NCBI GenBank assembly: GCA_040219255.1
Contig: JAVJSW010000059.1
Location: 14,070-78,069 of the forward strand
Length of the DNA: 64,000 bases
Reading direction: 5' to 3'
Source: Sumerlaeia bacterium
Lineage (GTDB): Bacteria; Sumerlaeota; Sumerlaeia; SLMS01; JAHLLQ01
Shown: positions 366 to 50,295 of the stretch, piece by piece
Numbering within the stretch: the first letter of the stretch is position 1
Layout of the letters: each line of letters begins with the position of its first letter
Notes under the pieces: model-generated
Seen by the model: only the letters and a program-made list of their open reading frames with translations
Told to the model about the DNA's origin: nothing
The model's database searches: none
Translations under genes and position numbers: made by a program

Positions 366-382
366 CTGGCCGGATGCTTGCT
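366..382 (+). promoter_or_regulatory. Putative sigma-54 (-24/-12) promoter for psd-pssA-rsmB
   Basis: CTGGCCGGATGCTTGCT has GG-N10-GC spacing and TTGC, 44 nt before the psd ATG. Confidence 0.4.
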
Positions 383-4567: not shown

Positions 4568-5092
4568 TCACCCGCGCGGCTTGCCCACCCGGTCGTACCA
4601 ACTGTCCGCCACCGTCGTCGCGAATCGCCCGGCGCGCAGCGGCTCCAGGTCCTCGATCAGGTGATCGAACACGCGGGTCGAATCGATGATCCGGCCCTCG
4701 GCGCGGCGGTTCTTGAATTCCAGGTTGTTGAGGAAAACGACGGCGCCATCCTGCTCCACGGCCAGGCGCGGCGCGTTGAGCATCCGCCGGCCGAGCTGGG
4801 TTTCGTAATGCAGCAGCGCGTGAGTCAGTCCGTCCTTGGTGCAGCCCGACAGGTCCCCGCCCGATGGCTCGTAAGCCACCGCCAGGAAGTAGAACCGCCC
4901 GCCCAGGTTGCCGGTCAACTCCACGGCGGCGTTGCGAGCGGCGCCTTTCTCGACCCACTGCGCGGCCATTTCCGACACCAGAGCCAGCAGCGGCGTCGCT
5001 TCGTCCCGCGTCAGGCCACCCTCGATGGGCACGATGCGTACCTTGGCGGTGGCCGGCAGGGCTTGAAAGGTGGAGAGCGTTTCGGTCGTCAT
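4568..5092 (-). CDS. Conserved hypothetical protein (SGC-x-x-D motif family)
   Basis: LSGCTKD motif and VFDHLI...DSWY C-terminus recall a conserved uncharacterised family; follows exeB on the same strand. Confidence 0.6.
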   Translation of the reverse strand: MTTETLSTFQALPATAKVRIVPIEGGLTRDEATPLLALVSEMAAQWVEKGAARNAAVELTGNLGGRFYFLAVAYEPSGGDLSGCTKDGLTHALLHYETQLGRRMLNAPRLAVEQDGAVVFLNNLEFKNRRAEGRIIDSTRVFDHLIEDLEPLRAGRFATTVADSWYDRVGKPRG

Positions 5093-5144: not shown

Positions 5145-5846
5145 TCAATAACGGATGTAAACCTTCACCGGCCCGCCGGCGTCGTCCACTTCGGCTTCGA
5201 TCATACCGCTGCGGATGTCCAGGGGGCGGATGCCCTTGTACTTGCGGCCGATGGAGAGTTCCTCGTCATCGATCAGCACCATCGAGTCGGCGCCGAGAAT
5301 GAGCGCGCCCTTGATTTCGACACCCAGATCGGCGGGCGAGATGAGCTGATTTTCCGCGAAACGCGGGGTAGGCCGGGGCGTGATGCGCGGCGTTGGGCGA
5401 GGCGTCGCCGTGGGCCGGGCGGGGACTTCCACGGCGGCCACGGGGGTTTGCGTCGGCATCGGTGTGGGCGAGGGTGTTGGGGTGGGCGTGATGGCCGGGG
5501 TTGGGGTCGGGCCGAGCGTGGGCGTCGCGGGCTTGATGGTGCCGCCTGTCATGTCGCTCGGCGCGTCCCGCGCACCCATCTGGTCCACGACGACAGAAGC
5601 CATTTCCTGAGGCCGGTCGTCCCGGCCCCGGCTCAGCAAGACACCGATCAGGACGACTCCTCCAAGCACCAGCACGCCAAAAAACGCAGCCCCCGCCAGG
5701 AGCGCCAAGCGCATCTGGCGCCGGTGCTTTTCCTCCATCTCGCGCAGCCGCCGCTCGCGCTCCTGCGCCAGCCGGTCTTCCGTCGAGCCGGCGCGGGCCT
5801 GCTTCGCTTTGCTGGCTTTTTCCAGCGCGTCCAGAATCGAACTCAT
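5145..5846 (-). CDS. General secretion pathway protein B (ExeB/GspB-like)
   Basis: Start MSSILDALEKA is typical of GspB. Single TM, Pro/Thr linker and a small C-terminal domain. Its ATG overlaps the exeA stop (ATGA at 5843-5846). Confidence 0.75.
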   Translation of the reverse strand: MSSILDALEKASKAKQARAGSTEDRLAQERERRLREMEEKHRRQMRLALLAGAAFFGVLVLGGVVLIGVLLSRGRDDRPQEMASVVVDQMGARDAPSDMTGGTIKPATPTLGPTPTPAITPTPTPSPTPMPTQTPVAAVEVPARPTATPRPTPRITPRPTPRFAENQLISPADLGVEIKGALILGADSMVLIDDEELSIGRKYKGIRPLDIRSGMIEAEVDDAGGPVKVYIRY

Positions 5847-7867
5847 GGCTGGCCTCCCTGCTCTTTCGCGGTGTTGAGCAGAGCGAAAGCCAGCTCGGCG
5901 TTGGTGCTTTCTTCCTCCGGCAGCCCAATGGCGCGGCGCACGGCGCGCACGGCGTCGGCGGTGGCGGCGTCGTACTCGCCGCTCGGGGTCGATTGTAAAT
6001 ATCCGAGCGACGACAGACGATCCTGCAAGGCCTCCACATCGGGGCCCATGTCGCCGGGGCGCAGGTCCGCCAGCCCTTCCAGGTCGCGGAAGAGGCCGCT
6101 GAGACCGGCGAGGTGCGCTTCCAGCTCTTCGCGCGGCACCCGCACCCGGCCGTGGCGCGGGTCCGCCAGCACCGCTTCGCCCCCTTCCAATTCTTCGAGC
6201 ACCGCCCACGGCCCAAAGCCCGAGGCGTCCATATCGGCTTGAACCAGGAGCGGCAGGTGGCGCTGCTCGACAAAATCCAGCACGGCGGGCAGCCGCGCCT
6301 GGCGCAGGAACAGCGGCGGCTCGCCAGCCAACTGCATCGGCGGCGAGTTCATGGTGCGCATCCCAGCCAGTTGCTCCTCTGTGAGGCGGTAGCCATGCCG
6401 GGCCAGCCAGGTCAGGACGCTGGCGGCGAAGGCCCCCGCCGGCTTCTCGACCCGCAGGATGCCGTCGCGGTAAACCCAGTCCGTGGGGGCGGCGGGCGTC
6501 GCGGCGGGGGTGGGGCTGGGCTCGGCAAGGGAGGCGGCGGCCAATGGCGCCGTGGCCGATTCGTCGTCCGGAACGGCCTGGGCCAAGGCCTCTGTCGTGG
6601 CATCGTCAATGGAGGGGGCAGCCTCCGCGATGGCGGCCGGAAGCTGAGGCTCGGGCGCCGGCTCAGGCGTGGAAATCGGCGTCGCGGTGGGTTCGGGGGT
6701 TGCCGTTGCCGTCGGTTCCGGCGCGGGGGTCGGCGTTGGGGTGGCCGTGGCCTGCGCCAATTCCATCACGGCGCCGGGCGGGGGCTGCACCGCCGGGGCG
6801 CCGAGGCTTCCGAGGTCGTTCGCCAGAGGTTCGCTGTCCTTCGCGCCCAAGCCCCCGCCGCCCGCGTAGATCGCCAGCGCCACCAGCCCAAAGCCCAGCA
6901 GCATCGCCGCCGCCATCCAGCCGCCGGAGCCGCCACGGCGCTCGCTTGGCGCCGCTGCGGGCTGGGAATCTGCCACCGCCGCCGCCATCACAGGGACGTC
7001 CACCGCGCTCTGGCTCGCCAGGGCCTGCGCCGCCGCGGCTGCCTTGGGAGCATGCCGCCGCCGGCCCGCCACTTCCTCCACGGCTTTCTTCGCGATGGCC
7101 TCGCTCACCTCCAGCGTATCGCGCGAAAACGCGATCAGCAGCGCCCGGTCGCACACCACGTTGATTTTGCGCGGCACGCCGCCGCTGTGGGCATAGATCG
7201 CCTTCAGCGCCTTCTTGTGGAATTTCGGCCGGCGGTCGGGATTCGCCACCGCCACGCGATGAGCGATGTATTCGTCCACCTCGCCGAAGTCCAGCGGATC
7301 GATGTGGCAGCGGACCATGATGCGCTGATTGAGCTGCTCCAGCTCCGGCAGGTGCAGCACATCGTCCAGCTCGGGCTGGCCCACCAGAGCGATCTGGATC
7401 AGCTTCGTGTCTTCCGTCTCCAGGTTTGAAATCAGCCGCACCTGCTCCAGCGCCGCGGGCGAGAGCCGCTGGCTCTCGTCGATCACCAGCACCGCGTTGT
7501 GGCCGGCGGCGTACTGCTCGAGCAGGAAGGCGTTCAGCGCCCCGAGCAGTTCGCGGCGCGACGCCGAGGCGTGCTCGATGCCGTACTCCGCGTTGATCGC
7601 CTGCAACAGCTCCACATCGTCGAGTTGCGGGTTCAGAATGAGCGCCAGCTTGATCGTCTCGCGGTCGAGCTGGCGGAGCAACTGGCGGCAGATCGTCGTC
7701 TTTCCGCTGCCGATTTCGCCGGTCAGGGCGATGAACCCTTTGCGCTGCTCGATGCCATAGAGCAGCGCGGCGAGGGCTTCCTTGTGCCGCTGGGACAGAT
7801 AGAGGAAGCGGGGGTTCGGCGTGATGGTGAATGGCTCTTCGTCAAAGCCAAAGTGATCCAAGTACAT
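5843..7867 (-). CDS. exeA: ExeA/GspA AAA ATPase with C-terminal peptidoglycan-binding domain
   Basis: MYLDHFGFDEEPFTITPNPRFLY, Walker A GEIGSGKT, Walker B VLVIDESQ, LVGQPEL, SGGVPRKIN; TM; PG-binding LRPGDMGPDVEALQDRL...GEYDAATADAV. Confidence 0.92.
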   Translation of the reverse strand: MYLDHFGFDEEPFTITPNPRFLYLSQRHKEALAALLYGIEQRKGFIALTGEIGSGKTTICRQLLRQLDRETIKLALILNPQLDDVELLQAINAEYGIEHASASRRELLGALNAFLLEQYAAGHNAVLVIDESQRLSPAALEQVRLISNLETEDTKLIQIALVGQPELDDVLHLPELEQLNQRIMVRCHIDPLDFGEVDEYIAHRVAVANPDRRPKFHKKALKAIYAHSGGVPRKINVVCDRALLIAFSRDTLEVSEAIAKKAVEEVAGRRRHAPKAAAAAQALASQSAVDVPVMAAAVADSQPAAAPSERRGGSGGWMAAAMLLGFGLVALAIYAGGGGLGAKDSEPLANDLGSLGAPAVQPPPGAVMELAQATATPTPTPAPEPTATATPEPTATPISTPEPAPEPQLPAAIAEAAPSIDDATTEALAQAVPDDESATAPLAAASLAEPSPTPAATPAAPTDWVYRDGILRVEKPAGAFAASVLTWLARHGYRLTEEQLAGMRTMNSPPMQLAGEPPLFLRQARLPAVLDFVEQRHLPLLVQADMDASGFGPWAVLEELEGGEAVLADPRHGRVRVPREELEAHLAGLSGLFRDLEGLADLRPGDMGPDVEALQDRLSSLGYLQSTPSGEYDAATADAVRAVRRAIGLPEEESTNAELAFALLNTAKEQGGQP

Positions 7868-8035
7868 GGGGGACAATTCAGAGCGGCAGGCGCGAGCCTC
7901 GCCGGAAACGTTTCGACATCTTCACGCTGAGGAGCCCAGCGCAAGCCCGTCAATGGGGGAATGCGCTGGCGGGACGTCTCGATCCGGGACGGCGAGAACG
8001 GGCGGCAAGGTGTTCGGCGGAGCCACGCGGCGGCG

Positions 8036-8074
8036 CAAAGAAAAGACGCCCCGCGACGAATCGCGAGGCGTCTT
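8036..8074 (-). terminator. Intrinsic terminator
   Basis: Minus strand AAGACGCCTCGCGA-TTCG-TCGCGGGGCGTCTT-TTCTTT: 14-bp stem, UUCG loop, U-rich tail. Its single G-U pair only works on the minus strand. Confidence 0.85.
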
Positions 8075-8234
8075 GACCTCCTGAGAGGCAGCCCCCTGTT
8101 CCCACCCTGCTCCGATGGAAACTTTGTCTAATGAAGAGATCGCTTCCGTCCCCTGATGGTTTGCTGCGAAAGCACAGCTTTTGGCGGTTCGACCTCTTCG
8201 CTCGCCATCCCGGGATTCCCGCGTTGGCTCGCAA
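8036..8234 (-). ncRNA. Candidate structured small RNA of unknown family
   Basis: Nested stems 8079-8092/8200-8215, 8133-8142/8190-8199, 8163-8168/8173-8178 and 8098-8106/8114-8122, with G-U pairs valid on the minus strand. Lies between a sigma-54-like promoter and a terminator; no credible ORF. Confidence 0.65.
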
Positions 8235-8244
8235 GCGATGACAC

Positions 8245-8261
8245 AGCACACACCGTTCCAA
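8245..8261 (-). promoter_or_regulatory. Putative sigma-54 promoter driving the candidate sRNA
   Basis: Minus strand TTGGAACGGTGTGTGCT versus consensus YTGGCACGRNNNTTGCW: 2 mismatches, exact GG-N10-GC spacing. Confidence 0.6.
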
Positions 8262-8328
8262 TTCTTCGGCGACAAAGAAAACCGTGGCTTTTCCGGTTCC
8301 TCTTCAGCTTCAGCGGCGAAGCGAAACC

Positions 8329-9138
8329 TCAGCCGCCACAGGGCTCTTTGCCCAAAACATCCACCATGGCGGCGTGAATGCGCCCGTTGCTGGCCACCAG
8401 CCGGGGGATGAAGGGATCGAACGATTCGTTCTCGAAATTACTCATTCGGCCCCCCGCTTCCTCCACCAGCAATGCACCGGCGCAACAGTCCCAGGGCTTC
8501 AAATTGAGTTCGTAAAAGCCATCGAGGTGCCCCGCCGCGACATTGGCCAGGTCCAGCGCCGCGCTGCCGAGCCGCACCACACCCTGCGTCTTCAGGAGAA
8601 ACCGCCCGTAGGTCCCCATCAGCCAGTCGATGTGGCGGTCGCGGTCATAGGGAAACCCCGTCACCAGCAGCGAATCCTCCAGCGTGTCGACCTTGGAGAC
8701 GCCGATCCGCTGGCCATTGCGGGTCGCGCCCAGGCCCCGCCCGGCCAGATACATCTCGCCCAGCGCCGGGGCGAAAATCCCGCCCGCCACCGTCTCGCCA
8801 TCCCGCTGCACGCCGACGCTGACGCTGAACAGCGGCAGGCCGTGGGCGAAGTTCGTCGTGCCATCCAGCGGATCGACGATCCACAGCCGCCCGCCGGCCG
8901 AGGCTTCGGCCCCGATCTCGCCCCCCTCCTCCGCCAGGATGCGGTCCTGGGGAAAACGGTGGCGGATGGCGGACGCAACGGCCGCCTCGGCCGCTTCGTC
9001 CGCCTCCGTCACCAAATCCTTCGCGCCCTTCTTTTCGTATTTGTCCAGCTTGCGCCAGTGCGCCAGATGGCAATCGCCAGCCAGTTCGCACAGGCGTGCG
9101 ATGAAATCGAGCAGATCGCTTGGAGTGGTTTCGGACAT
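8329..9138 (-). CDS. suhB: Inositol monophosphatase family protein (SuhB-like)
   Basis: DLVTEAD, ILAEE, WIVDPLDGTTNFAHG, RLGSAALDL, LKPWDCCAG. Confidence 0.9.
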   Translation of the reverse strand: MSETTPSDLLDFIARLCELAGDCHLAHWRKLDKYEKKGAKDLVTEADEAAEAAVASAIRHRFPQDRILAEEGGEIGAEASAGGRLWIVDPLDGTTNFAHGLPLFSVSVGVQRDGETVAGGIFAPALGEMYLAGRGLGATRNGQRIGVSKVDTLEDSLLVTGFPYDRDRHIDWLMGTYGRFLLKTQGVVRLGSAALDLANVAAGHLDGFYELNLKPWDCCAGALLVEEAGGRMSNFENESFDPFIPRLVASNGRIHAAMVDVLGKEPCGG

Positions 9139-9196: not shown

Positions 9197-9676
9197 TTAG
9201 GGAGCCGTCAACGTCACTCCGAATTGCGCGAGGTGATGCTGCGTGTGGCGACCGTGAATCTTCGACCAGTAAGTCAGCGGCATGAGGCCGAAAATGGGAT
9301 TGAGGGTTATTCGAGCCGGGTCCTTGTCGAGGGCCGAAAGGAAGCGCTCCATCGCCTCGAAGAGCCGTTCCCGCTCCGCCTGAACATCACCATCGGCGGC
9401 GGGGGTGAAATAGTCCGGCGCCTTGATCTTGCCTCGGGGGATGGGCATGACTTCGAACGCCATCCACCGCATCAGCGGAAGGCGGGTCACGAAGTTGCTT
9501 GTGTCCGTCACACCATCGACTTCTTCGAGGCTCACTTCGATGCTCCGGCTGAGATGGCGAAGCATCCCAGCCGGATCGAGGGTTCCAAAGCGGCGTTGGC
9601 TGTCGGGGTGGATTTGTTCCAGAGGAGCGGAAAAAAGAGACAAGGTGTCGCGCCGGAGAGGCACTGCCTTTGCCAT
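9197..9676 (-). CDS. DinB/DUF1569-like four-helix protein
   Basis: FGTLDPAGMLRHL and NPIFGLM...HGRHTQHHLAQFGV. Confidence 0.75.
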   Translation of the reverse strand: MAKAVPLRRDTLSLFSAPLEQIHPDSQRRFGTLDPAGMLRHLSRSIEVSLEEVDGVTDTSNFVTRLPLMRWMAFEVMPIPRGKIKAPDYFTPAADGDVQAERERLFEAMERFLSALDKDPARITLNPIFGLMPLTYWSKIHGRHTQHHLAQFGVTLTAP

Positions 9677-9709
9677 GGTTATGTGTCCTAAGTGCAAGTT
9701 CGAGAAGGA

Positions 9710-10537
9710 TCAACCCAGCCGGGCTTTCTCCAGCTCTTCCTTGCACTTGACGCAAAGTTTGGCCCACGGCTTGGCGTGCAGCCGGCCCATCGGAATCCAA
9801 TGGCCGCACCGGATGCAAATGCCATAGGTGCCGCGATCCATGCGTTCCAGCGCCTCCAGCACCAGCACAAGAAGTTCCTCGTGCTCGCGCCGCTGACGCA
9901 GAAGCGTCTCCAGAGAGGCGCTGTCCGAGGCCGCGTCCGCCTGATGGTTCGAGAAGGAGCGATTGCCAGAACGTTCCTCCTCGTTCATCGAGTCGACGAA
10001 GGCGATGTGGCGGCGCAGCGATTCCCGCTTGGAAACCAGCATGTCGCGCAGTTCGGCGATCTCCGACTTTTTGTAGGGACACTTGCTGCGCTTGGCGGCA
10101 TCCTGGGCTTGGGCCGCCGCCGCACGAGCCGCCATGGCGCGCGCCGCCGCGGCGGAAAGCGCCGGAGCCGCCGCGGCGGCCGCTTTCTTCGAGGTGGCGG
10201 AACTCCGCTTCTTCGCCGGAGCGCCCGCCTCCTCACCGGTCTCCGCCCGTTTTTTCAGGATCTTGGCCAACAAGGCCTTTTTCGAGTCCGCGCTTTTCGC
10301 CGGCTTGGCGGACGTGTCGGCGGATGCGGACCGGGTTTTCGATTTGGCCTTGGCCTTGGCCACGGCTTTCAGGGCGACGCTGCCGGACTTCTTCGTTTTC
10401 GAAGAAGCCGCTTCCTCCGCCTTGGCGGAGGTCTTGGCGCGGGCCGCGGGTTTTTCTTCGCCGCCGCCGGCCGGTTTCTTCGTCACCTTCTTGGCTGTGC
10501 TCGTGGTCTTCGTGATTCGCGTTCGGGGGGTGCTCAC
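9710..10537 (-). CDS. TraR/DksA C4-type zinc finger protein with long Lys/Ala-rich N-terminus
   Basis: NHQADAASD coiled-coil tip, ALERMDRGTYGICIRCG...RLHAKPWAKLCVKC. The GTG start overlaps the ileS stop. Confidence 0.85.
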   Translation of the reverse strand: MSTPRTRITKTTSTAKKVTKKPAGGGEEKPAARAKTSAKAEEAASSKTKKSGSVALKAVAKAKAKSKTRSASADTSAKPAKSADSKKALLAKILKKRAETGEEAGAPAKKRSSATSKKAAAAAAPALSAAAARAMAARAAAAQAQDAAKRSKCPYKKSEIAELRDMLVSKRESLRRHIAFVDSMNEEERSGNRSFSNHQADAASDSASLETLLRQRREHEELLVLVLEALERMDRGTYGICIRCGHWIPMGRLHAKPWAKLCVKCKEELEKARLG

Positions 10538-13386
10538 TCGGCGATACTCCTCACAACAGATGCGCAGCGCGGGCAAAGGCTCGGGTGCTCGTGATCGCTT
10601 CCCACTTCAGGAGTCCAAGTCCAGCAACGCTCGCACTTGGCCCCTTCCGCATGATCGATCCGGATCGAGAGCTTCAGCCCCGCGCTTTCGAGGGCTTCGT
10701 TGGTGTCTCCACTCTCCTCCGCCTTCACGTCTACTTGAGAAACGATGAAGACACGCGGCAGAAGATGGGAGACCCCGGCAAGAAACGCAAGTGTTTCTTG
10801 ATTTTTGGTGGCGAGCGTGACGCGCGCCTCCAGCGAGTTGCCGATGGTTTTGTCCCGGCGCAGCGGTTCGATGGCCTTTTGGACCTCGGAACGCAGTTCG
10901 AGAAGCCGCCGCCAGTCGGCCAGCAGCTTCTCCGATTCATGATCCCACGCCTCGAACGGACGCGGGAAATCCGCCAGGTGGACGCTTTCCAGCGCCTCAC
11001 CACCGGCGGGCTTTGGCAAATAGTCCCAGGCCTCGTGGGCCGTGAAGGGCAACAAGGGAGCAATGATTTTCAGAAGACGGGATGCGATCGCGTGGATCGT
11101 GGCTTGGCAGGCGCGCCGCGCCGGATCGTCCGGAGCCCCGCAGTACATGCGGTCCTTCGCGCAATCCAGGTAAACGCCGCTCAGGTCGTTCACGCAAAAT
11201 GCGTTCACCAAATGGTAAACCCGGTGGAATTCATAGGCGTCGTAGGCCGCCGTGGCCTTGCGCACCAGTTCGTTCGTCCGCGCCAGGATCCAGCGGTCGT
11301 CCTCCAGGAACGTGGCGCTCTCGGCCTCCGCGTCGGGGTGCTCGCCGATGCGGTAGTCGTCCAGATTACCCAGCAGGAAGCGGATCGTGTTGCGCACGCG
11401 GCGGTACACTTCGCTGACCTGCTTAAGGATGTTGTCGCTTACCGTCAGATCGCCGCGGTAATCTTCGCTCGCGACCCAGAGGCGCAGCACGTCCGCGCCG
11501 CTCTGCTCGATGACCTTCAGAGGAGCCACCACGTTGCCGACGCTCTTGGACATCTTCACGCCCTTCTCGGCGAGGATGAACCCGTGCGTCAGGACCGCCT
11601 TGTAGGGCGCTGTTCCTTTGACGCCCATCGCCACCCACAAACTGCTCTGGAACCAGCCGCGATGCTGATCGCTGCCTTCCAGGTACAGGTCCGCCGGCCA
11701 GCGCAGATTCGCCCTCGCGTCCAGCACACCGAGATGGCTGGCGCCGCTGTCGAACCACACGTCCAGGACGTTCGATTCCTTGGTGTAGCGGCCCGGTTCT
11801 TTCTCCATCGTGTCTGGCACGAAATCCTCGGCCGGGCGCGTGAACCAGCAATCGGTGCCTTCCGTCGCCACGTAGGAAACGAACTTCTCCACGATTTCGC
11901 GCGACAGGACGCTCTCGCCGGTCTTCGTGTCGAAAAGCGACGGGATCGGCACGCCCCAGGCGCGCTGGCGCGACAGGCACCAATCCGGCCGCCCCGCCAC
12001 CATGTTGTAGATGCGGTCGCGGCCCCACTTCGGGATCCACTCGACCTTATCGACTTCGGCGAGAGCCTTCTCGCGCAGGCCGTCTTTCTCCACCGCCATG
12101 AACCACTGTTCCGTGGCGCGCATGATGACCGGCTGCTTGCTGCGCCAGGAATAGGCGTAGCTGTGTTCGTAGGTGCCGGTCCAGATCAGGGTGCCTTCCG
12201 CGCGGAACTTCTCGATCAGCCGCTTGTTCGCGTCGAAGACCGACACGCCCTGCATTTCCGGATAGAGCGCCGTGTAGCGCCCCGCGCCATCGACCGGGTT
12301 GAAGACTTCCAGGCCGTATTCCTTGCCGATTTCAAAGTCCTCGACGCCGTGCGCCGGCGCCGTGTGGACGCAGCCCGTGCCCTGTTCGAGGGTCACGTGC
12401 TCGCCCAGCATCAGCAGCGACGGCTTCTCCGGGAACACCGGATGATGGGCGCGCTTGCGATCCAGGATTTCCGCGTTGAAGCGGCCGACCACTTCGCCGT
12501 CTTCCAGGCCCGTGGTCAGCTTGAACGCCGTCAGCAGGCCCTCCGCGATCAGCAGCGTTTCCTCATCCCCGCGGCGGTACATCACGTAGTCGAACTCGCG
12601 CGAGAGGCTGACGCCCATGTTCGCCGGCATCGTCCAGGGCGTCGTGGTCCAGATGACGATGGTCGGCTTCGGCAGACCCTTCAGCTCCTCCGGAACGTCC
12701 TCCGCATAGAGAGGGAAGCGCAGGTAGATCTGGGGCGAGACGTGGTTGTCGTTGTATTCGAGTTCGGCCTCGGCCAGCGCCGTTTCGTACACTGTGTCCC
12801 AGTGCACGGGCTTGAAGCCCTTGTAGATGTAGCCCTTGCCGACCAGCTCCGCGAAGCCCTGAAGGATCGCGACCTCGTACTCCGGGTCCATGGTGATGTA
12901 GGGATGCTCCCAGTCGCCGCCGATGCCGAGGCGCTGGAATTGGGTGCGCTGGGTGCCGACCCACTGGCGGGCCTCCTCGGCGCACAGGCGGCGGATTTCC
13001 AGGGGCTCCTTGCCCTCCAGCTGCTTCTTCTTGCGCAGGCGGTCGAGGACCTTCTGCTCGATCGGCAGGCCGTGGCAGTCCCAGCCGGGGACGTAGTCGG
13101 TCTTGAAACCGGCCATGGTCTTGTAGCGGACCACGAAGTCCTTGAGGACTTTGTTCAGGGCGTGGCCGATGTGGATGTCGCCGTTGGCGTAGGGCGGGCC
13201 ATCGTGCAGCACGTAATCGGGTGCGCCGGCGCGGCGGGCGGCGATCTTCTCGGACAGGCCCATGGCCTGCCACTCGTCGAGGATCGTGGGCTCTTTCTGG
13301 GCCAGACCCGCGCGCTGCGGGAAGTCCGTCTTCGGAGTGAGGACGGTTTTCTTGTAATCGGGGGCTGTGGTTTCTTGAGTCGTCAT
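10534..13386 (-). CDS. ileS: Isoleucine--tRNA ligase (type 1)
   Basis: HDGPPYANGDIHIGH, GWDCHGLPIE, WTTTPWT, DWCLSRQRAWG, KMSKS, C-terminal CERCW...CPRC. Confidence 0.98.
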   Translation of the reverse strand: MTTQETTAPDYKKTVLTPKTDFPQRAGLAQKEPTILDEWQAMGLSEKIAARRAGAPDYVLHDGPPYANGDIHIGHALNKVLKDFVVRYKTMAGFKTDYVPGWDCHGLPIEQKVLDRLRKKKQLEGKEPLEIRRLCAEEARQWVGTQRTQFQRLGIGGDWEHPYITMDPEYEVAILQGFAELVGKGYIYKGFKPVHWDTVYETALAEAELEYNDNHVSPQIYLRFPLYAEDVPEELKGLPKPTIVIWTTTPWTMPANMGVSLSREFDYVMYRRGDEETLLIAEGLLTAFKLTTGLEDGEVVGRFNAEILDRKRAHHPVFPEKPSLLMLGEHVTLEQGTGCVHTAPAHGVEDFEIGKEYGLEVFNPVDGAGRYTALYPEMQGVSVFDANKRLIEKFRAEGTLIWTGTYEHSYAYSWRSKQPVIMRATEQWFMAVEKDGLREKALAEVDKVEWIPKWGRDRIYNMVAGRPDWCLSRQRAWGVPIPSLFDTKTGESVLSREIVEKFVSYVATEGTDCWFTRPAEDFVPDTMEKEPGRYTKESNVLDVWFDSGASHLGVLDARANLRWPADLYLEGSDQHRGWFQSSLWVAMGVKGTAPYKAVLTHGFILAEKGVKMSKSVGNVVAPLKVIEQSGADVLRLWVASEDYRGDLTVSDNILKQVSEVYRRVRNTIRFLLGNLDDYRIGEHPDAEAESATFLEDDRWILARTNELVRKATAAYDAYEFHRVYHLVNAFCVNDLSGVYLDCAKDRMYCGAPDDPARRACQATIHAIASRLLKIIAPLLPFTAHEAWDYLPKPAGGEALESVHLADFPRPFEAWDHESEKLLADWRRLLELRSEVQKAIEPLRRDKTIGNSLEARVTLATKNQETLAFLAGVSHLLPRVFIVSQVDVKAEESGDTNEALESAGLKLSIRIDHAEGAKCERCWTWTPEVGSDHEHPSLCPRCASVVRSIAE

Positions 13387-17304: not shown

Positions 17305-19614
17305 TCACTCCACCTTCGTCAAGGGCGCGAACTTGACCATCAGGTCCAGGTTGTAGCCCTCGTCGAACTGCACCTTCACCCGTTCGGCGCCGAAGCCGCC
17401 TTTCACCTCCAGCACCGTGCCCTGGCCGAACTTCTTGTGTTCGACACGGTCGCCGGGTGAGTAGGGGGTTTTGTCGGCGGGTTTGAAGGTGCTTTTCGGC
17501 CGGCGCTGGCTGGCCATGGCCTGATTGGCGGCGTCGCTGCCGAGGCGGGCGCCGAAGAGCCGGTTCTCGTAGCTGCGGCCCGCCGGCGCCGCCTGGCCCG
17601 TGGCGGTGCCCCGTCCGTAGCCCTTCATACCCCGCAGGCCCAGCTTTTCGCGGTCGCGGTCGCTGAGCAGTTCGTCGGGAATTTCCCGCAGGAACACCGA
17701 CGGCTCGGTGTAATCGTAGGCTCCGTACATCAGGCGCCGGCTCGCCCGCGAAAGGTAGAGCTTCTGGCGCGCCCGCGTCAGCGCCACATAGAACAGCCGC
17801 CGTTCCTCCTCGAACTGCGCCGGGTTGTCCATCGTGCGGCTGTTGGGGAAAAGCCCTTGGTCGAGGCCCACGACGAAGACGTAGTCGAATTCCAGCCCCT
17901 TGGCGTTGTGCACCGTCATCAGGCTCACCTTCGGTTTGCCGTCGTCCTCGTCGCGTTGGCCGTCCAGGCTCATGGCCTCCAGGAAATCGGTCACCGTGTG
18001 TTCGCCCTGCACTTCTTGCTCGAACTGCACGACGACGTTTTCCAGCTCCTCGACGTTTTCGATTTTCACCCGCGCGTCCAGGTTGTCCGGGTCACCGAAG
18101 TTCGTTTCCTTGTACTCGGTGTCCTTCAGGATTTGCGTCAGCACCTCGCGAACGGTGCTTGTCTTCGCCATCGTGAACCACTTTGTCACCATGGCGATAA
18201 ACGATTCCAAGCCCTTCTTGGCTTTGCCTTTGATCTCGCCCTCGTCCAGGAGCTGTTGCGTCGCGGTGAACTGGCTGACGCCCCGGAAGGCCGCCCGGCG
18301 GATGATGTCGCCGTGGGTTTTCTTGCCCACGCCCCGGGTGGGGACGTTGACGACGCGCTCGAACGCGAGGTCGTTGTGCGGAATCACGGCGAGGCGCAGG
18401 AAGCTCAGCACGTCCTTGATTTCCGCCCGGTCATAGAAGCGCACCGAACCAACCAGGCGATAGGGCAGGCGATACTTGCGCAGGCCATCTTCGAAGGCGC
18501 GGCTGAGGCGATGGCTGCGATAAAAAATCGCGATTTCCTCGGGCGGAATGCCATCGTTCTCGATCAGGCCCGCGATGGTTCCCGCCACCTGCTCGGCCTC
18601 GTCCGTGTCGTCCACGCCGCCGATGCCGCGCAGCACTTCGCCGTCTTCCTTCTCGGTCCAGAGGCTCTTGCCGATGCGCATCGTGTTGTTCTTGATGACG
18701 GTTTCGGCGGCCTTGAGCACGTTGCCGACGGAGCGATAATTCTGCTCGAGCCGCACCAACTTGGCGTCGGGATACGTCTTGTTGAAATCCAGCAGGTTCG
18801 TGACCTCCGCCCCGCGCCAGGAATAGATCGACTGGTCTTCGTCGCCGACGACGCAGATGTGGCGGTCTTCGCCGACGAGGAGCTTCACCAGTTCGAACTG
18901 CGAGTGGTTCGTGTCCTGGAACTCATCGACCAGCACATAGCGGTACTTTTCGTTCCAGCGCCGCCGGACGTCCTCGTGATCGCGCAGGAGCAGGACGGTC
19001 TTGAAAATCAGGTCCTCGAAATCCAGCGAGTTGTTCTTGTGCAGCAGCTTTTCGTACTCCGCATAGACATCGGCGTAGGGCAGTTCGTCGTGGTCGAAGG
19101 CCTCCTTGCACTCGGCGGGGGTCAGGAGGCGCATCTTCGCCATGTTGATAAAGTGCTGGCACTGGGCCGGTTTCGCGCGCTTCTCGCTCAGGTTGGCGGC
19201 TTCCATGGCCTTCTTCACGGCGGTCACTTGATCGCGGTCGTCGATGATGGCAAAGGACCGGTCGATCCCGGCGGCGTCGGCTTCCCGGCGCAGGATCAGC
19301 GCGCAACGGCTGTGGAAGGTCCCAATGGGTAGCGTGTGGGTTTGTTCGTGGCCGAGGAGCCGGCCGATGCGCTCGCGCATTTCGCGGGCGGCCTTGTTTG
19401 TGAAGGTCACCGCCAGAATCTGCCACAGCGGAATGCCGATCACGTGCGACAGGTACGCGATGCGGTGGGTGATGACGCGGGTTTTGCCGCTGCCCGCGCC
19501 CGCGATGATGAGCAGCGGCGACCCGATGTGCTCGACGGCTTCTCGTTGCTGCGGGTTCAGGCCCGAGAGGATTTGGCTTTCCAGGTCGTTGCTGGCGAAA
19601 TCGGCGGCGGTCAT
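17305..19614 (-). CDS. pcrA: ATP-dependent DNA helicase UvrD/PcrA
   Basis: AGAGSGKT, TFTNKAA, VDEFQDTN, VGDEDQSIYSWRGA, LEQNYRS, TVHNAKGLEF, EERRLFYVALTRA; Tudor-like C-terminus. Confidence 0.96.
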   Translation of the reverse strand: MTAADFASNDLESQILSGLNPQQREAVEHIGSPLLIIAGAGSGKTRVITHRIAYLSHVIGIPLWQILAVTFTNKAAREMRERIGRLLGHEQTHTLPIGTFHSRCALILRREADAAGIDRSFAIIDDRDQVTAVKKAMEAANLSEKRAKPAQCQHFINMAKMRLLTPAECKEAFDHDELPYADVYAEYEKLLHKNNSLDFEDLIFKTVLLLRDHEDVRRRWNEKYRYVLVDEFQDTNHSQFELVKLLVGEDRHICVVGDEDQSIYSWRGAEVTNLLDFNKTYPDAKLVRLEQNYRSVGNVLKAAETVIKNNTMRIGKSLWTEKEDGEVLRGIGGVDDTDEAEQVAGTIAGLIENDGIPPEEIAIFYRSHRLSRAFEDGLRKYRLPYRLVGSVRFYDRAEIKDVLSFLRLAVIPHNDLAFERVVNVPTRGVGKKTHGDIIRRAAFRGVSQFTATQQLLDEGEIKGKAKKGLESFIAMVTKWFTMAKTSTVREVLTQILKDTEYKETNFGDPDNLDARVKIENVEELENVVVQFEQEVQGEHTVTDFLEAMSLDGQRDEDDGKPKVSLMTVHNAKGLEFDYVFVVGLDQGLFPNSRTMDNPAQFEEERRLFYVALTRARQKLYLSRASRRLMYGAYDYTEPSVFLREIPDELLSDRDREKLGLRGMKGYGRGTATGQAAPAGRSYENRLFGARLGSDAANQAMASQRRPKSTFKPADKTPYSPGDRVEHKKFGQGTVLEVKGGFGAERVKVQFDEGYNLDLMVKFAPLTKVE

Positions 19615-25961: not shown

Positions 25962-27317
25962 TTACCCTGCGGTGGCGAAGACCTCCCCGTTCACCTCGGC
26001 CAGCGCCGCCTCCAGGATTTCGAAGGCTTCGTCCAACTGCTCGTCCGTGATGACCAGCGGCGGCAGGAAGCGGATGCCATTGCTGTAGAGCCCGGCGCGG
26101 ATCAGGATGAGGCCTTTGGCGGAGGCGCGCTTGATGATTTCCAGGGTTTGCTGGGGGGCCGGTTCTTTGGTCTTTCGATCCAGCACGAACTCCACCAGCA
26201 GCATCGCCCCCAGCCCGCGCACGTCGCCCACCAGTTCGTACTTCCCGGCCCAGCGGTCGAGGTGCGCGCGCATGCGGTCGCCGATGGCGTTGGTGCGGGC
26301 CTGGAACTCGGGCTGGCGGATGATCTGGATGCTTTCCCGCGCGGCCACGCAAGCCAGCGGCGCGCCGCCATAGGTGCCGCCGGCGCCGCCCACGTGGGGC
26401 GCGTCCATGATCTCGGCTTTGCCGGTCACGGCGGCGATGGGCATGCCGCTGCCGAGCGACTTGCCGCTGACGATCAGGTCCGGCACGACGCCGCTGTGCT
26501 CGATGGCCCACAGCTTACCCGTCCGGCCCATGCCGCACTGGATTTCGTCGGCGATCATGACGACGCCGTGGGCGTCGCAGAGGGTGCGGATTTTCTTCAG
26601 ATACTCCGCCGGAATCGGCACAAAGCCCGCCTCGCCCTGCACCGGCTCGATCACGATGGCGGCCAGAGCGCTCGGGTCCACCTGCGAGATCATCGCGTTG
26701 TCCAACTGATCCATCATGTGGCACAGGTATTCGCCGGGATTCATGCACGCCGGGCGGCGGTACATGTTCGGCGCGGGGATGCGGTAGATTTCGGAGGCAT
26801 AGGGCCCGAAGCCCTTCTTGAAGAGTCCGTATTTGCTCGTCATCGACAGCGTCAGCAGCGTGCGGCCGTGGTAGCCGCCTTCGAAGACCAGCACGCCCGC
26901 GCGTCCCGTGGCGCAGCGCGCGGCCTTCACGGCGTTTTCGACCGCTTCCGAGCCGCTGTTACAGAGGATGGTTTTCTTGGGAAAATCGCCGGGGGTGACT
27001 TCGATCAGCAGTTCGCAAAGTTCCACATAGGGCTCGTAGGTGCCGACGATCAGGCAAAGGTGCAGGAGCTTTTCCGCCTGCTCGCGCATGGCTTCCACCA
27101 CCGGGCCGGGGCAATGGCCCGCCGCCAGCATGCCGATACCGCCGGCCAGATCGATAAGGACGTTGCCGTCCACATCCGTAACCAGGGCGCCTTCGGCCTT
27201 TTCCGCCACAACCTGGGTGGCTTTGGCCACGGCGTTGGTGACGGCTTTGGCGCGGCGTTCGAGGATCGCCTGGCTCTTCGGGCCGGGAATGGGGGTCTTC
27301 AACTGGATCGTGCCCAT
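25962..27317 (-). CDS. gabT: 4-aminobutyrate aminotransferase-like class III PLP aminotransferase
   Basis: DVDGNVLIDLAGGIG, NSGSEAVENAVK, YHGRT, EPVQGEAG, DEIQCGMGRTG, GKSLGSG, IRFLPPL. Confidence 0.88.
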   Translation of the reverse strand: MGTIQLKTPIPGPKSQAILERRAKAVTNAVAKATQVVAEKAEGALVTDVDGNVLIDLAGGIGMLAAGHCPGPVVEAMREQAEKLLHLCLIVGTYEPYVELCELLIEVTPGDFPKKTILCNSGSEAVENAVKAARCATGRAGVLVFEGGYHGRTLLTLSMTSKYGLFKKGFGPYASEIYRIPAPNMYRRPACMNPGEYLCHMMDQLDNAMISQVDPSALAAIVIEPVQGEAGFVPIPAEYLKKIRTLCDAHGVVMIADEIQCGMGRTGKLWAIEHSGVVPDLIVSGKSLGSGMPIAAVTGKAEIMDAPHVGGAGGTYGGAPLACVAARESIQIIRQPEFQARTNAIGDRMRAHLDRWAGKYELVGDVRGLGAMLLVEFVLDRKTKEPAPQQTLEIIKRASAKGLILIRAGLYSNGIRFLPPLVITDEQLDEAFEILEAALAEVNGEVFATAG

Positions 27318-48909: not shown

Positions 48910-50295
48910 ATGCTCGATTTGTTGGTCAAGGGAGCCACCATTGTCACCGATGGGGTGGAATTTCGCGCCGACCTCGGCGTCAGCAACGGGCGCGTTTCGC
49001 ACCTCGGCTCTCTGTCCGAAGACAGCGCCTCCGAGGTCATCGATGCCTCCGGCAAGGTGCTCCTTCCGGGATTCGTCGAGCTCGCCGTTTCTCCCCTCGA
49101 GGACGCCCCCTACGCCCCCGCCGCCCCGGGCCAGGATCTTGCCGCTCTCACCGCCCAGGCCGCCCTCGGCGGCGTCACCAGCCTCATCGTGGCCCGGGCC
49201 TGGAACGCCTCCCGCCCCTTCGCCGACGAACTGGCCGAGGTCCGCGAGCGCGACGCCGCCCGCGCCGCCGTCGATTTCGGCTATCACTACTTCATTTCCG
49301 ACTGGTCTGCCGACCGCCGCCGGCATCTGCGCCTCGCCCTCACCGCCGGCGTCCCCTCCGTCTGGATCCCCCGGGCCGGCGTCGAGGCCGCCCCCGCGGC
49401 CGCCCTCCACTACGCCGTGCTGCGCGATCTTCCCGCCAACTGTCTCGCCGTGACCACGCTCTCCGATCCCGGCCTCGAGGCCTTCCTGCGCTCCGAACTC
49501 AAGGCCAACGGCCAGCTCGCCGCCGCCCATCACGGAGCCATCTTTCCCGAATGGCTCGAAACGGAAGCCCTCCGCCGGCTCGACGCCGTCGCCCGGGGTG
49601 CTCGCGCCCGCCTCCTCGTCGCCGGTCTCACCTGTCCCCGCTCCCTCGCCGAATTCGCCGCCCTGCGCGATGCCAACGGCGTCCTCTGCGGCGCCGCCTC
49701 CCTCGCTCACTTGTGCTTCAATCTCGATCAGATGGAGGAGGAAACGACCCCCCGCCTGCCTTTCGCCTGGCCTCCCCTTCGGCCCCGCTCCGCCCAGCAG
49801 GCTCTCTGGAACGCCCTCGACGACGGCCTTCTCCAGGTCGCCACCTCGCTCCACCGCCCAGTCGCCGCCTCGGCCTACGCGGCGTCCCTCAAAGACGCCA
49901 GCACCGCCCTCGATGGCTCCTCCGCCCTTCCCCATTTCGCCCCCATGCTCTACGGAGAAGGCGCCGCCAAGCTTCGCATGGGCACGGAAAGCCTCAGCCT
50001 CTGCGCCTGCGCCGACCCCGCCAAGCTCGCCGGTATCTACCCCCGCAAAGGCACCCTGCAAATCGGCGCCGACGCCGATTTCCTGATCTTCGATCCCAAC
50101 GCCGATCACGTCCGGCCAGGCATTCCGGCCAAACTCGGTCCCGAGACGCACGACGCTTTCGCCGGGCTCGAATGCGCCGGCGCCCTCGAAGGCGTCTTCC
50201 TTCGCGGCGAGTCCATCGCCGGGGAAATGTCCTCCGCCGCCACCCCACACCCCCCCTCGGGCCGCTTCCTCGACCGCCAAATGGCTGTCAAGTAG
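48910..50295 (+). CDS. Dihydropyrimidinase/cyclic amidohydrolase homologue lacking metal ligands
   Basis: Scaffold motifs GKVLLPG, AALGGVTSLI, VDFGYH, PPLR...QALWNAL and PAKLAGIYPRKGTLQIGADADFLIFDP are present, but HxH is absent. Confidence 0.85.
   Translation: MLDLLVKGATIVTDGVEFRADLGVSNGRVSHLGSLSEDSASEVIDASGKVLLPGFVELAVSPLEDAPYAPAAPGQDLAALTAQAALGGVTSLIVARAWNASRPFADELAEVRERDAARAAVDFGYHYFISDWSADRRRHLRLALTAGVPSVWIPRAGVEAAPAAALHYAVLRDLPANCLAVTTLSDPGLEAFLRSELKANGQLAAAHHGAIFPEWLETEALRRLDAVARGARARLLVAGLTCPRSLAEFAALRDANGVLCGAASLAHLCFNLDQMEEETTPRLPFAWPPLRPRSAQQALWNALDDGLLQVATSLHRPVAASAYAASLKDASTALDGSSALPHFAPMLYGEGAAKLRMGTESLSLCACADPAKLAGIYPRKGTLQIGADADFLIFDPNADHVRPGIPAKLGPETHDAFAGLECAGALEGVFLRGESIAGEMSSAATPHPPSGRFLDRQMAVK

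Follow-up and report, generated by a model that had tools for sequence, protein, structure and literature searches.

An unproven orphan sRNA-like candidate behind suhB in a Sumerlaeia bacterium: 3' untranslated region or internal promoter?

A spacer of 452 nt separates a suhB-like gene from an exeA-like gene on the minus strand of a Sumerlaeia bacterium, and it raises the question of whether a structured noncoding RNA is made there and, if so, from which promoter. The first-pass annotation of the window (the whole 64-kb stretch of DNA that was analyzed) had read positions 8261 to 8036 as a self-contained, putatively sigma-54-dependent RNA gene that might act in trans or, as a riboswitch or attenuator, on "exeAB." The genome, 92% complete in 83 contigs, is the sole representative of its genus in the genome collection used. 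Contigs from three DNA runs came from the same organism at low depth and carried no variants within the element. Directly upstream of the element lies the gene for a suhB-like inositol monophosphatase (positions 8329 to 9138, minus strand; Pfam Inositol_P, 3.1e-64). Downstream lies the gene for an ExeA-like protein with Pfam AAA_22 and PG_binding_1 matches (5843 to 7867, minus strand, within an ORF spanning 5843 to 7876), for which the ATG at 7867 is the conserved start. This ATG is 169 nt beyond position 8036, in agreement with the earlier estimate of about 170 nt. The label "exeAB" did not hold, as exeB was not recognizable; the ORF that comes right after the ExeA-like gene (174 amino acids, 4568 to 5092, minus strand) had no Pfam match. 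Of the 25 genomes in the order, 24 carry exeA as a single copy, and a search of species-representative genomes returned six ExeA loci, the four closest of which (54 to 77% identity) belong to Candidatus Sumerlaeia or Sumerlaeota MAGs.

The coding potential of the spacer was assessed from its eight ORFs. GC content by codon position was flat in all eight (0.53 to 0.73), compared with a GC3 of 0.82 to 0.85 and a GC2 of 0.42 to 0.48 in the flanking genes, and none had a significant Pfam match (best E value, 0.21). The suhB-exeA spacer is therefore noncoding. ARAGORN detected no tRNA or tmRNA in the element. The gene calls used to compare spacer lengths were crude and missed about one-quarter of genes.

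Read on the minus strand, the predicted RNA would start near position 8234, behind a -24/-12-like box (TGGAACGGTGTGTGCT, 8245 to 8260) in which GG and GC are 12 nt apart. The first structural element in the minimum free energy (MFE) fold is SL1, an imperfect 5' hairpin at 8200 to 8232 that competes with an outer stem. That outer stem had been annotated as part of the core; it exists as an alternative fold and is not the full-length MFE structure, since the MFE of positions 8036 to 8240 (-94.0 kcal/mol) has SL1 (8232 to 8200) in its place and forcing the outer stem gave -89.4 kcal/mol, which is 4.6 kcal/mol worse. SL2 (8133 to 8199), seen both in the MFE and as an inverted repeat, is a 10-bp stem (GAAGAGGUCG/CGAUCUCUUC, 8199 to 8190 and 8142 to 8133) that closes a small three-way junction containing a GCUGUG-CUUU-CGCAGC hairpin and a CC-AUCA-GG mini-hairpin. 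It is followed by an A/U-rich linker (AUUAGACAAA, 8123 to 8132), the only long single-stranded stretch, which is unpaired in both the MFE and the centroid structures and would be a possible seed or cleavage site. SL3 (8098 to 8122) is a 9-bp hairpin (GUUUCCAUC/GGUGGGAAC) with the loop GGAGCAG. Both the 10-bp stem with its enclosed GCUGUG-CUUU-CGCAGC hairpin and the 9-bp hairpin with its loop were recovered as annotated. SL4 (8084 to 8097) is a weak 5-bp hairpin, GGGGG-CUGC-CUCUC, that is present in the MFE and reduced to 4 bp in the centroid; behind it is a Shine-Dalgarno-like AGGAGG that no start codon follows.

Next, the stability of this fold was compared with that of dinucleotide shuffles, to which all z scores refer. 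On the minus strand, the z score was -5.07 for positions 8036 to 8240 (terminator included), -3.09 for 8076 to 8220, and -4.19 for 8096 to 8240, where none of 200 shuffles folded as well; the corresponding plus-strand scores were -2.26, -0.88, and -0.73. The wobble pairs of the fold had been said to work on the minus strand only, and the contrast of -4.19 with -0.73 confirms that the fold is strand specific. Such strong asymmetry favors a functional RNA over the main rival reading, in which a rearrangement joined suhB to exeA, the hairpins are fortuitous, and the terminator alone works, ending suhB. That rival is quite possible, and the size of the effect fits it. Among 70 random native 145-nt windows of the genome, two had a z score of -3.09 or lower and one had a z score of -4.19 or lower, and native windows with comparable stability make up 3 to 6%. 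With correction for GC content, the MFE of the core was only about 1.5 standard deviations below the mean for the 5,110 windows ranked across the 64-kb stretch, and on this raw measure the stability of the core is not above chance.

How well the fold is defined weighs on the other side. The MFE structure accounted for 27% of the ensemble for positions 8076 to 8220 and for 56% for positions 8096 to 8240, and the ensemble diversity (mean base-pair distance) of the candidate core was 4.3 to 5.0. None of 300 random native windows reached an MFE frequency of 0.265, and one reached the diversity of the candidate. When the best of nine offsets was taken at each of 200 native loci, the MFE frequency was again matched by none and the diversity was matched by two. 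The candidate ranked fifth of 1,331 minus-strand windows of the 64-kb stretch by MFE frequency and also by diversity. The top five by MFE frequency included three windows in coding DNA, with a cobalamin riboswitch second; the candidate and that riboswitch were the only noncoding members. Thus, among noncoding minus-strand windows only a known riboswitch is comparable, which argues for a structured RNA and against fortuitous hairpins. The riboswitch (RF00174, 166 to 324, minus strand; 37 bits against a gathering threshold of 31.5) served as the positive control.

Two considerations temper this result: the region was picked by eye, which introduces selection bias, and some coding windows are equally well defined, which fits the rival reading. 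Very well defined folds were seen in four wholly or partly coding minus-strand windows (9649 to 9841, 10033 to 10177, 26209 to 26353, and 49057 to 49201), which had an MFE frequency of 0.17 to 0.38 or a diversity of 3.3 to 4.7. Overall, the fold is unusual and strand specific, although measures of this kind produce false positives at a rate that should not be neglected. The first of the four stretches (9649 to 9841) spans the junction of a DUF1569 gene and a DksA/TraR-finger gene. The 288-amino-acid protein encoded at 9710 to 10576 (minus strand) matches Pfam only near its C terminus, at a DksA/TraR C4 zinc finger (residues 249 to 284), and its long N-terminal part has no match.

A 14-bp UUCG terminator had been annotated, and it was found at 8074 to 8043 in the same orientation as the structured core, with the U-rich tail (UUUUCUUU) extending the feature to 8036. 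Nine of the 14 pairs are G-C, the loop is UUCG, and the hairpin has a predicted energy of -25.5 kcal/mol; with its GC-rich stem followed by a U tract, this is a Rho-independent terminator. Its orientation, together with the noncoding nature of the spacer, is consistent with a real RNA that ends there. It is also the first terminator detected after the suhB stop, at a distance of 282 nt, compared with the 50 to 100 nt at which the strong terminators of this genome cluster behind stops (133 of 252). The 74 nt immediately behind the suhB stop were no better folded than shuffles (z score, -0.27), and suhB itself lacks a convincing terminator. Most suhB loci in relatives have no terminator after suhB, which makes that comparison uninformative. 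Because suhB has no convincing terminator, its mRNA should, at a minimum, carry the element as its 3' end, and the unstructured 74 nt together with the 282-nt distance imply that suhB transcripts should cross the element whether or not it has an internal promoter. The unusual distance of the terminator and the unstructured start of the gap both favor a structured domain at the end of this transcript. A genome-wide search for complementarity to the element returned nothing longer than 17 nt, and the 17-nt match was to the terminator tail.

Known RNA families were then considered. At gathering thresholds, the only Rfam 15 match in the 64-kb stretch was the Cobalamin riboswitch at 166 to 324, and nothing matched the element; the earlier statement that it could be assigned to no family was borne out. 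At E values up to 10, positions 7850 to 8400 gave four matches, all far below gathering (the best, on the other strand, scored 23.3 bits against 46); these are terminator-driven noise. The only named sRNA family with a suhB gene context in the Rfam scan was RF00519 (suhB/MmgR) of the alpha-proteobacteria, which the candidate resembles in adjoining suhB and ending in a terminator. The score was 13.2 bits against a gathering threshold of 41 (E value, 5.8), and the alignment covered essentially the terminator only, with 11 model positions deleted that span the consensus CUCCC stretch of the family; membership was rejected on these grounds. The element is not 6S RNA either: the 6S RNA of this genome (RF00013, 63.3 bits) lies elsewhere, at 18325 to 18514 on the minus strand of contig C66.

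The homologue search that the first-pass annotation had proposed yielded no homologue in 60 relatives by BLAST and no match at an E value of 1 or lower in 100 relatives with a covariance model (R1) built from the single sequence at 8076 to 8220. With looser filters, R1 gave one match in 24 genomes of the order (15 bits; E value, 4.9), in coding DNA, and one match with an E value of 7.9 in 80 distant metagenome suhB loci, where the SuhB homologues were at most 52% identical among the matches listed. Searches of plasmids and phages by blastn returned no match, and the element is present in one copy in its own genome, with no paralogues. The closest SuhB among the relatives is just 63% identical, so no near relative was available for comparison. 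The suhB-exeA adjacency was found in none of 24 other genomes of the order, and the element was absent from the suhB loci of 24 relatives. The lack of homologues and of conserved suhB-exeA synteny tells against a functional RNA, and of the 25 genomes in the order this one alone has the element and the gene order, as expected if a rearrangement had created a nonfunctional spacer.

We next considered the promoter. The first-pass annotation had described TTGGAACGGTGTGTGCT at 8261 to 8245 (minus strand) as a near-consensus -24/-12 promoter. Sigma-54 promoters have the consensus TGGCACG-N4-TTGCW, from which the box departs by two mismatches: it agrees at 10 of the 12 specified positions, and the GG/GC spacing is correct. 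The box and its spacing are thus as described, whereas the frequency of such matches in the window is that of chance. Sites with up to two mismatches numbered 8 in the 64-kb stretch against 10.9 ± 3.8 expected, and at least 8 were found in 80 of 100 shuffles.

Genome-wide data are more favorable to the box. The rpoN gene, whose presence the first-pass annotation had proposed to check, was found (211.9 bits), and there were 24 matches to Sigma54_activat, 19 of them strong (E value of 1.6e-50 or lower); with rpoN and 19 strong activator matches, the sigma-54 system of this genome is large. Promoter-like sites were compared with those of 12 permuted motifs. Thirteen of 22 one-mismatch sites lay in noncoding-like DNA, against a mean of 4.9 of 69 for the permuted motifs; the corresponding counts for two-mismatch sites were 101 of 246 against a mean of 64 of 627 (range, 42 to 97). 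The candidate box is one of these 101 sites, and it shares in whatever support the enrichment lends to a real RNA. Because 101 compares with a control mean of 64 and a highest control of 97, the excess suggests that roughly one-third of such noncoding two-mismatch sites may be genuine, a figure that serves as a prior rather than as proof. The two deviations of the box, TGGAAC and GTGC, each recur among the one-mismatch noncoding sites of the genome. Given rpoN, about 19 activators, and the noncoding enrichment, the sigma-54 box is plausible at the level of the genome. Examples of one-mismatch -24/-12 sites are TGGAACGGCATTTGCA on contig C47 and TGGAACGAAGGTTGCA on contig C30. A two-mismatch sigma-54-like site, TGGCCGGATGCTTGCT (366 to 382, plus strand), lies in noncoding-like DNA beside the cobalamin riboswitch region, pointing away from the riboswitch.

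These data bear on a stricter version of the preferred reading, and a subset of it, namely, that the element is a strictly self-contained sigma-54-dependent sRNA gene, bEBP activated, with a start at about 8234, an end at 8037 to 8043, and no involvement of suhB. The correct spacing, the 10 matching positions, the presence of rpoN and about 19 bEBPs, the recurrence of both deviations, the enrichment of such sites in noncoding DNA, and the fact that the structured part begins just past the predicted start are all consistent with it. Against it stand the chance frequency of the box in the window, the fraction of roughly one-third expected to be real, and the terminator-free stretch between suhB and the box, across which suhB read-through should cover the element as well. 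No activator site was identified. A search with the 23-nt promoter string (up to three mismatches) in 74 other Sumerlaeota genomes found a single match, within a signal-peptide coding region, which is a chance match. On balance, strict sigma-54 dependence is unlikely. No TTGAC box lies upstream of the element; this -35-like motif shows genome-wide enrichment in front of genes (24.4% versus 11.4%). Its absence and the chance frequency of the -24/-12 match also count against the preferred reading, and the latter fits a nonfunctional spacer.

The alternative that the element acts in cis, with exeA controlled by regulated read-through of the terminator, had been raised by the first-pass annotation and draws on two features: the element has the same orientation as exeA, and SL2 resembles a small junction of the aptamer type with a terminator behind it. 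The promoter region of exeA argues against it. A TTGAC (-35-like) box at 7949 to 7953 (minus strand) lies between the terminator and the ATG, 86 nt before the latter, and such a box occurs within the 130 nt preceding the exeA ATG (at 27 to 88 nt) in 22 of 23 Sumerlaeota loci. No conserved -10 hexamer is evident at these loci, and in the present genome the TTGAC is located in the loop between the two arms (7936 to 7948 and 7957 to 7969) of a 13-nt inverted repeat that is 85% complementary. In 22 of 22 relatives whose upstream regions were read, the element was absent upstream of exeA and the upstream neighbors differed; a further locus, the 23rd (L055), ended too soon for its upstream region to be read. 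As noted above, the covariance model matched none of 100 relatives, and no Rfam aptamer was matched. No antiterminator partner for either arm of the terminator exists in the upstream RNA: the best duplexes (-12.9 and -15.4 kcal/mol) compare with -25.5 kcal/mol for the hairpin, and 73% and 89% of shuffled upstream RNAs pair with the two arms as well. With a conserved TTGAC box of its own before exeA, no element in 22 relatives, and no antiterminator, the riboswitch or attenuator was rejected as very unlikely. We conclude that the element does not regulate exeA in cis.

Sequestration of CsrA had been offered as one option for a trans-acting RNA, on the strength of seven GGA trinucleotides. The count of seven was correct, and one copy lies in the SL3 loop. 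GGA is not enriched, however: 4.8 ± 1.9 copies are expected, at least seven occur in 18% of shuffles, and only one of the seven is fully unpaired. A chance-level GGA count is also what a nonfunctional spacer would be expected to show. CsrA itself (PF02599), for which the first-pass annotation would have the genome searched, was found in none of 25 genomes of the order, this one included, of which 12 are at least 90% complete; control genomes matched. An RNA of the CsrB/RsmZ kind that sequesters CsrA/RsmA has next to no probability and was rejected, CsrA having been found in none of the 25 genomes and GGA being at chance. Hfq was not found in this genome, in any of 11 genomes of the family, or, with one exception above the cutoff (G012), in the 25 of the order. 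The lineage thus seems to lack both classical sRNA partners, Hfq and CsrA, and the failure to find either in this genome counts against the preferred reading.

Taken together, these analyses neither confirm nor refute the predicted RNA. We put the probability that positions 8234 to 8036 (minus strand) hold a real, lineage-specific structured noncoding RNA ending at the terminator at roughly 45%. Such an RNA domain would comprise three well-defined stem-loops, SL1 to SL3, with SL2 as a small three-way junction, the single-stranded A/U-rich linker, and the strong intrinsic terminator. It could be produced by suhB read-through, as a 3' untranslated region (UTR), from the -24/-12-like internal promoter, or by both routes, and initiation at the internal promoter or processing could yield a distinct RNA of about 200 nt, as for 3'-UTR-embedded sRNAs. 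Any action in trans would have to proceed without Hfq or CsrA, presumably by base pairing through the linker or loops or by protein binding. The analyses show that the element is noncoding, has a well-defined, strand-specific fold, ends in a terminator, and belongs to no known family; a transcript, its 5' end, and any function are inferred, and the element is best described as an orphan sRNA-like candidate, as yet unproven, from the suhB 3' UTR or an internal promoter.

Two groups of known RNAs offer points of comparison. In enterobacteria, DapZ, MicL, CpxQ, and SroC are embedded in or derived from 3' UTRs and share the terminator of an mRNA. Like them, the candidate is a structured noncoding domain directly behind a gene; the sole intrinsic terminator available to that gene marks the 3' end of the domain, and transcription may also start from an internal promoter. 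Unlike them, it is a prediction from sequence, with no conserved seed, and neither Hfq nor a homologue was found. The sRNAs GlmY and CrcZ are sigma-54 dependent. Qrr1 to Qrr5 are likewise sigma-54-dependent sRNAs (bioRxiv 10.1101/2021.07.01.450815). The candidate shares with this second group a correctly spaced -24/-12-like box before a short, terminated noncoding unit, in a genome with rpoN and many activators. It differs in that its box has two mismatches and occurs at chance frequency, in having no Hfq or CsrA partner, in being single copy, and in matching no Rfam model in sequence or structure.

No small RNA of Sumerlaeota is described in those parts of the searched literature that were available. 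The boldest form of the proposal, that the element is the first regulatory sRNA of this phylum (sigma-54 driven, about 200 nt long, Hfq and CsrA independent, embedded behind suhB, restricted to a single genus, and equipped with an aptamer-like three-way junction), is a long shot. At present the element is a single-genome candidate, to be used as a target once transcriptomes or sister genomes of the lineage appear. If real, it would offer an initial entry point to RNA-based regulation in an uncultured phylum with a large sigma-54 system and, seemingly, neither Hfq nor CsrA.
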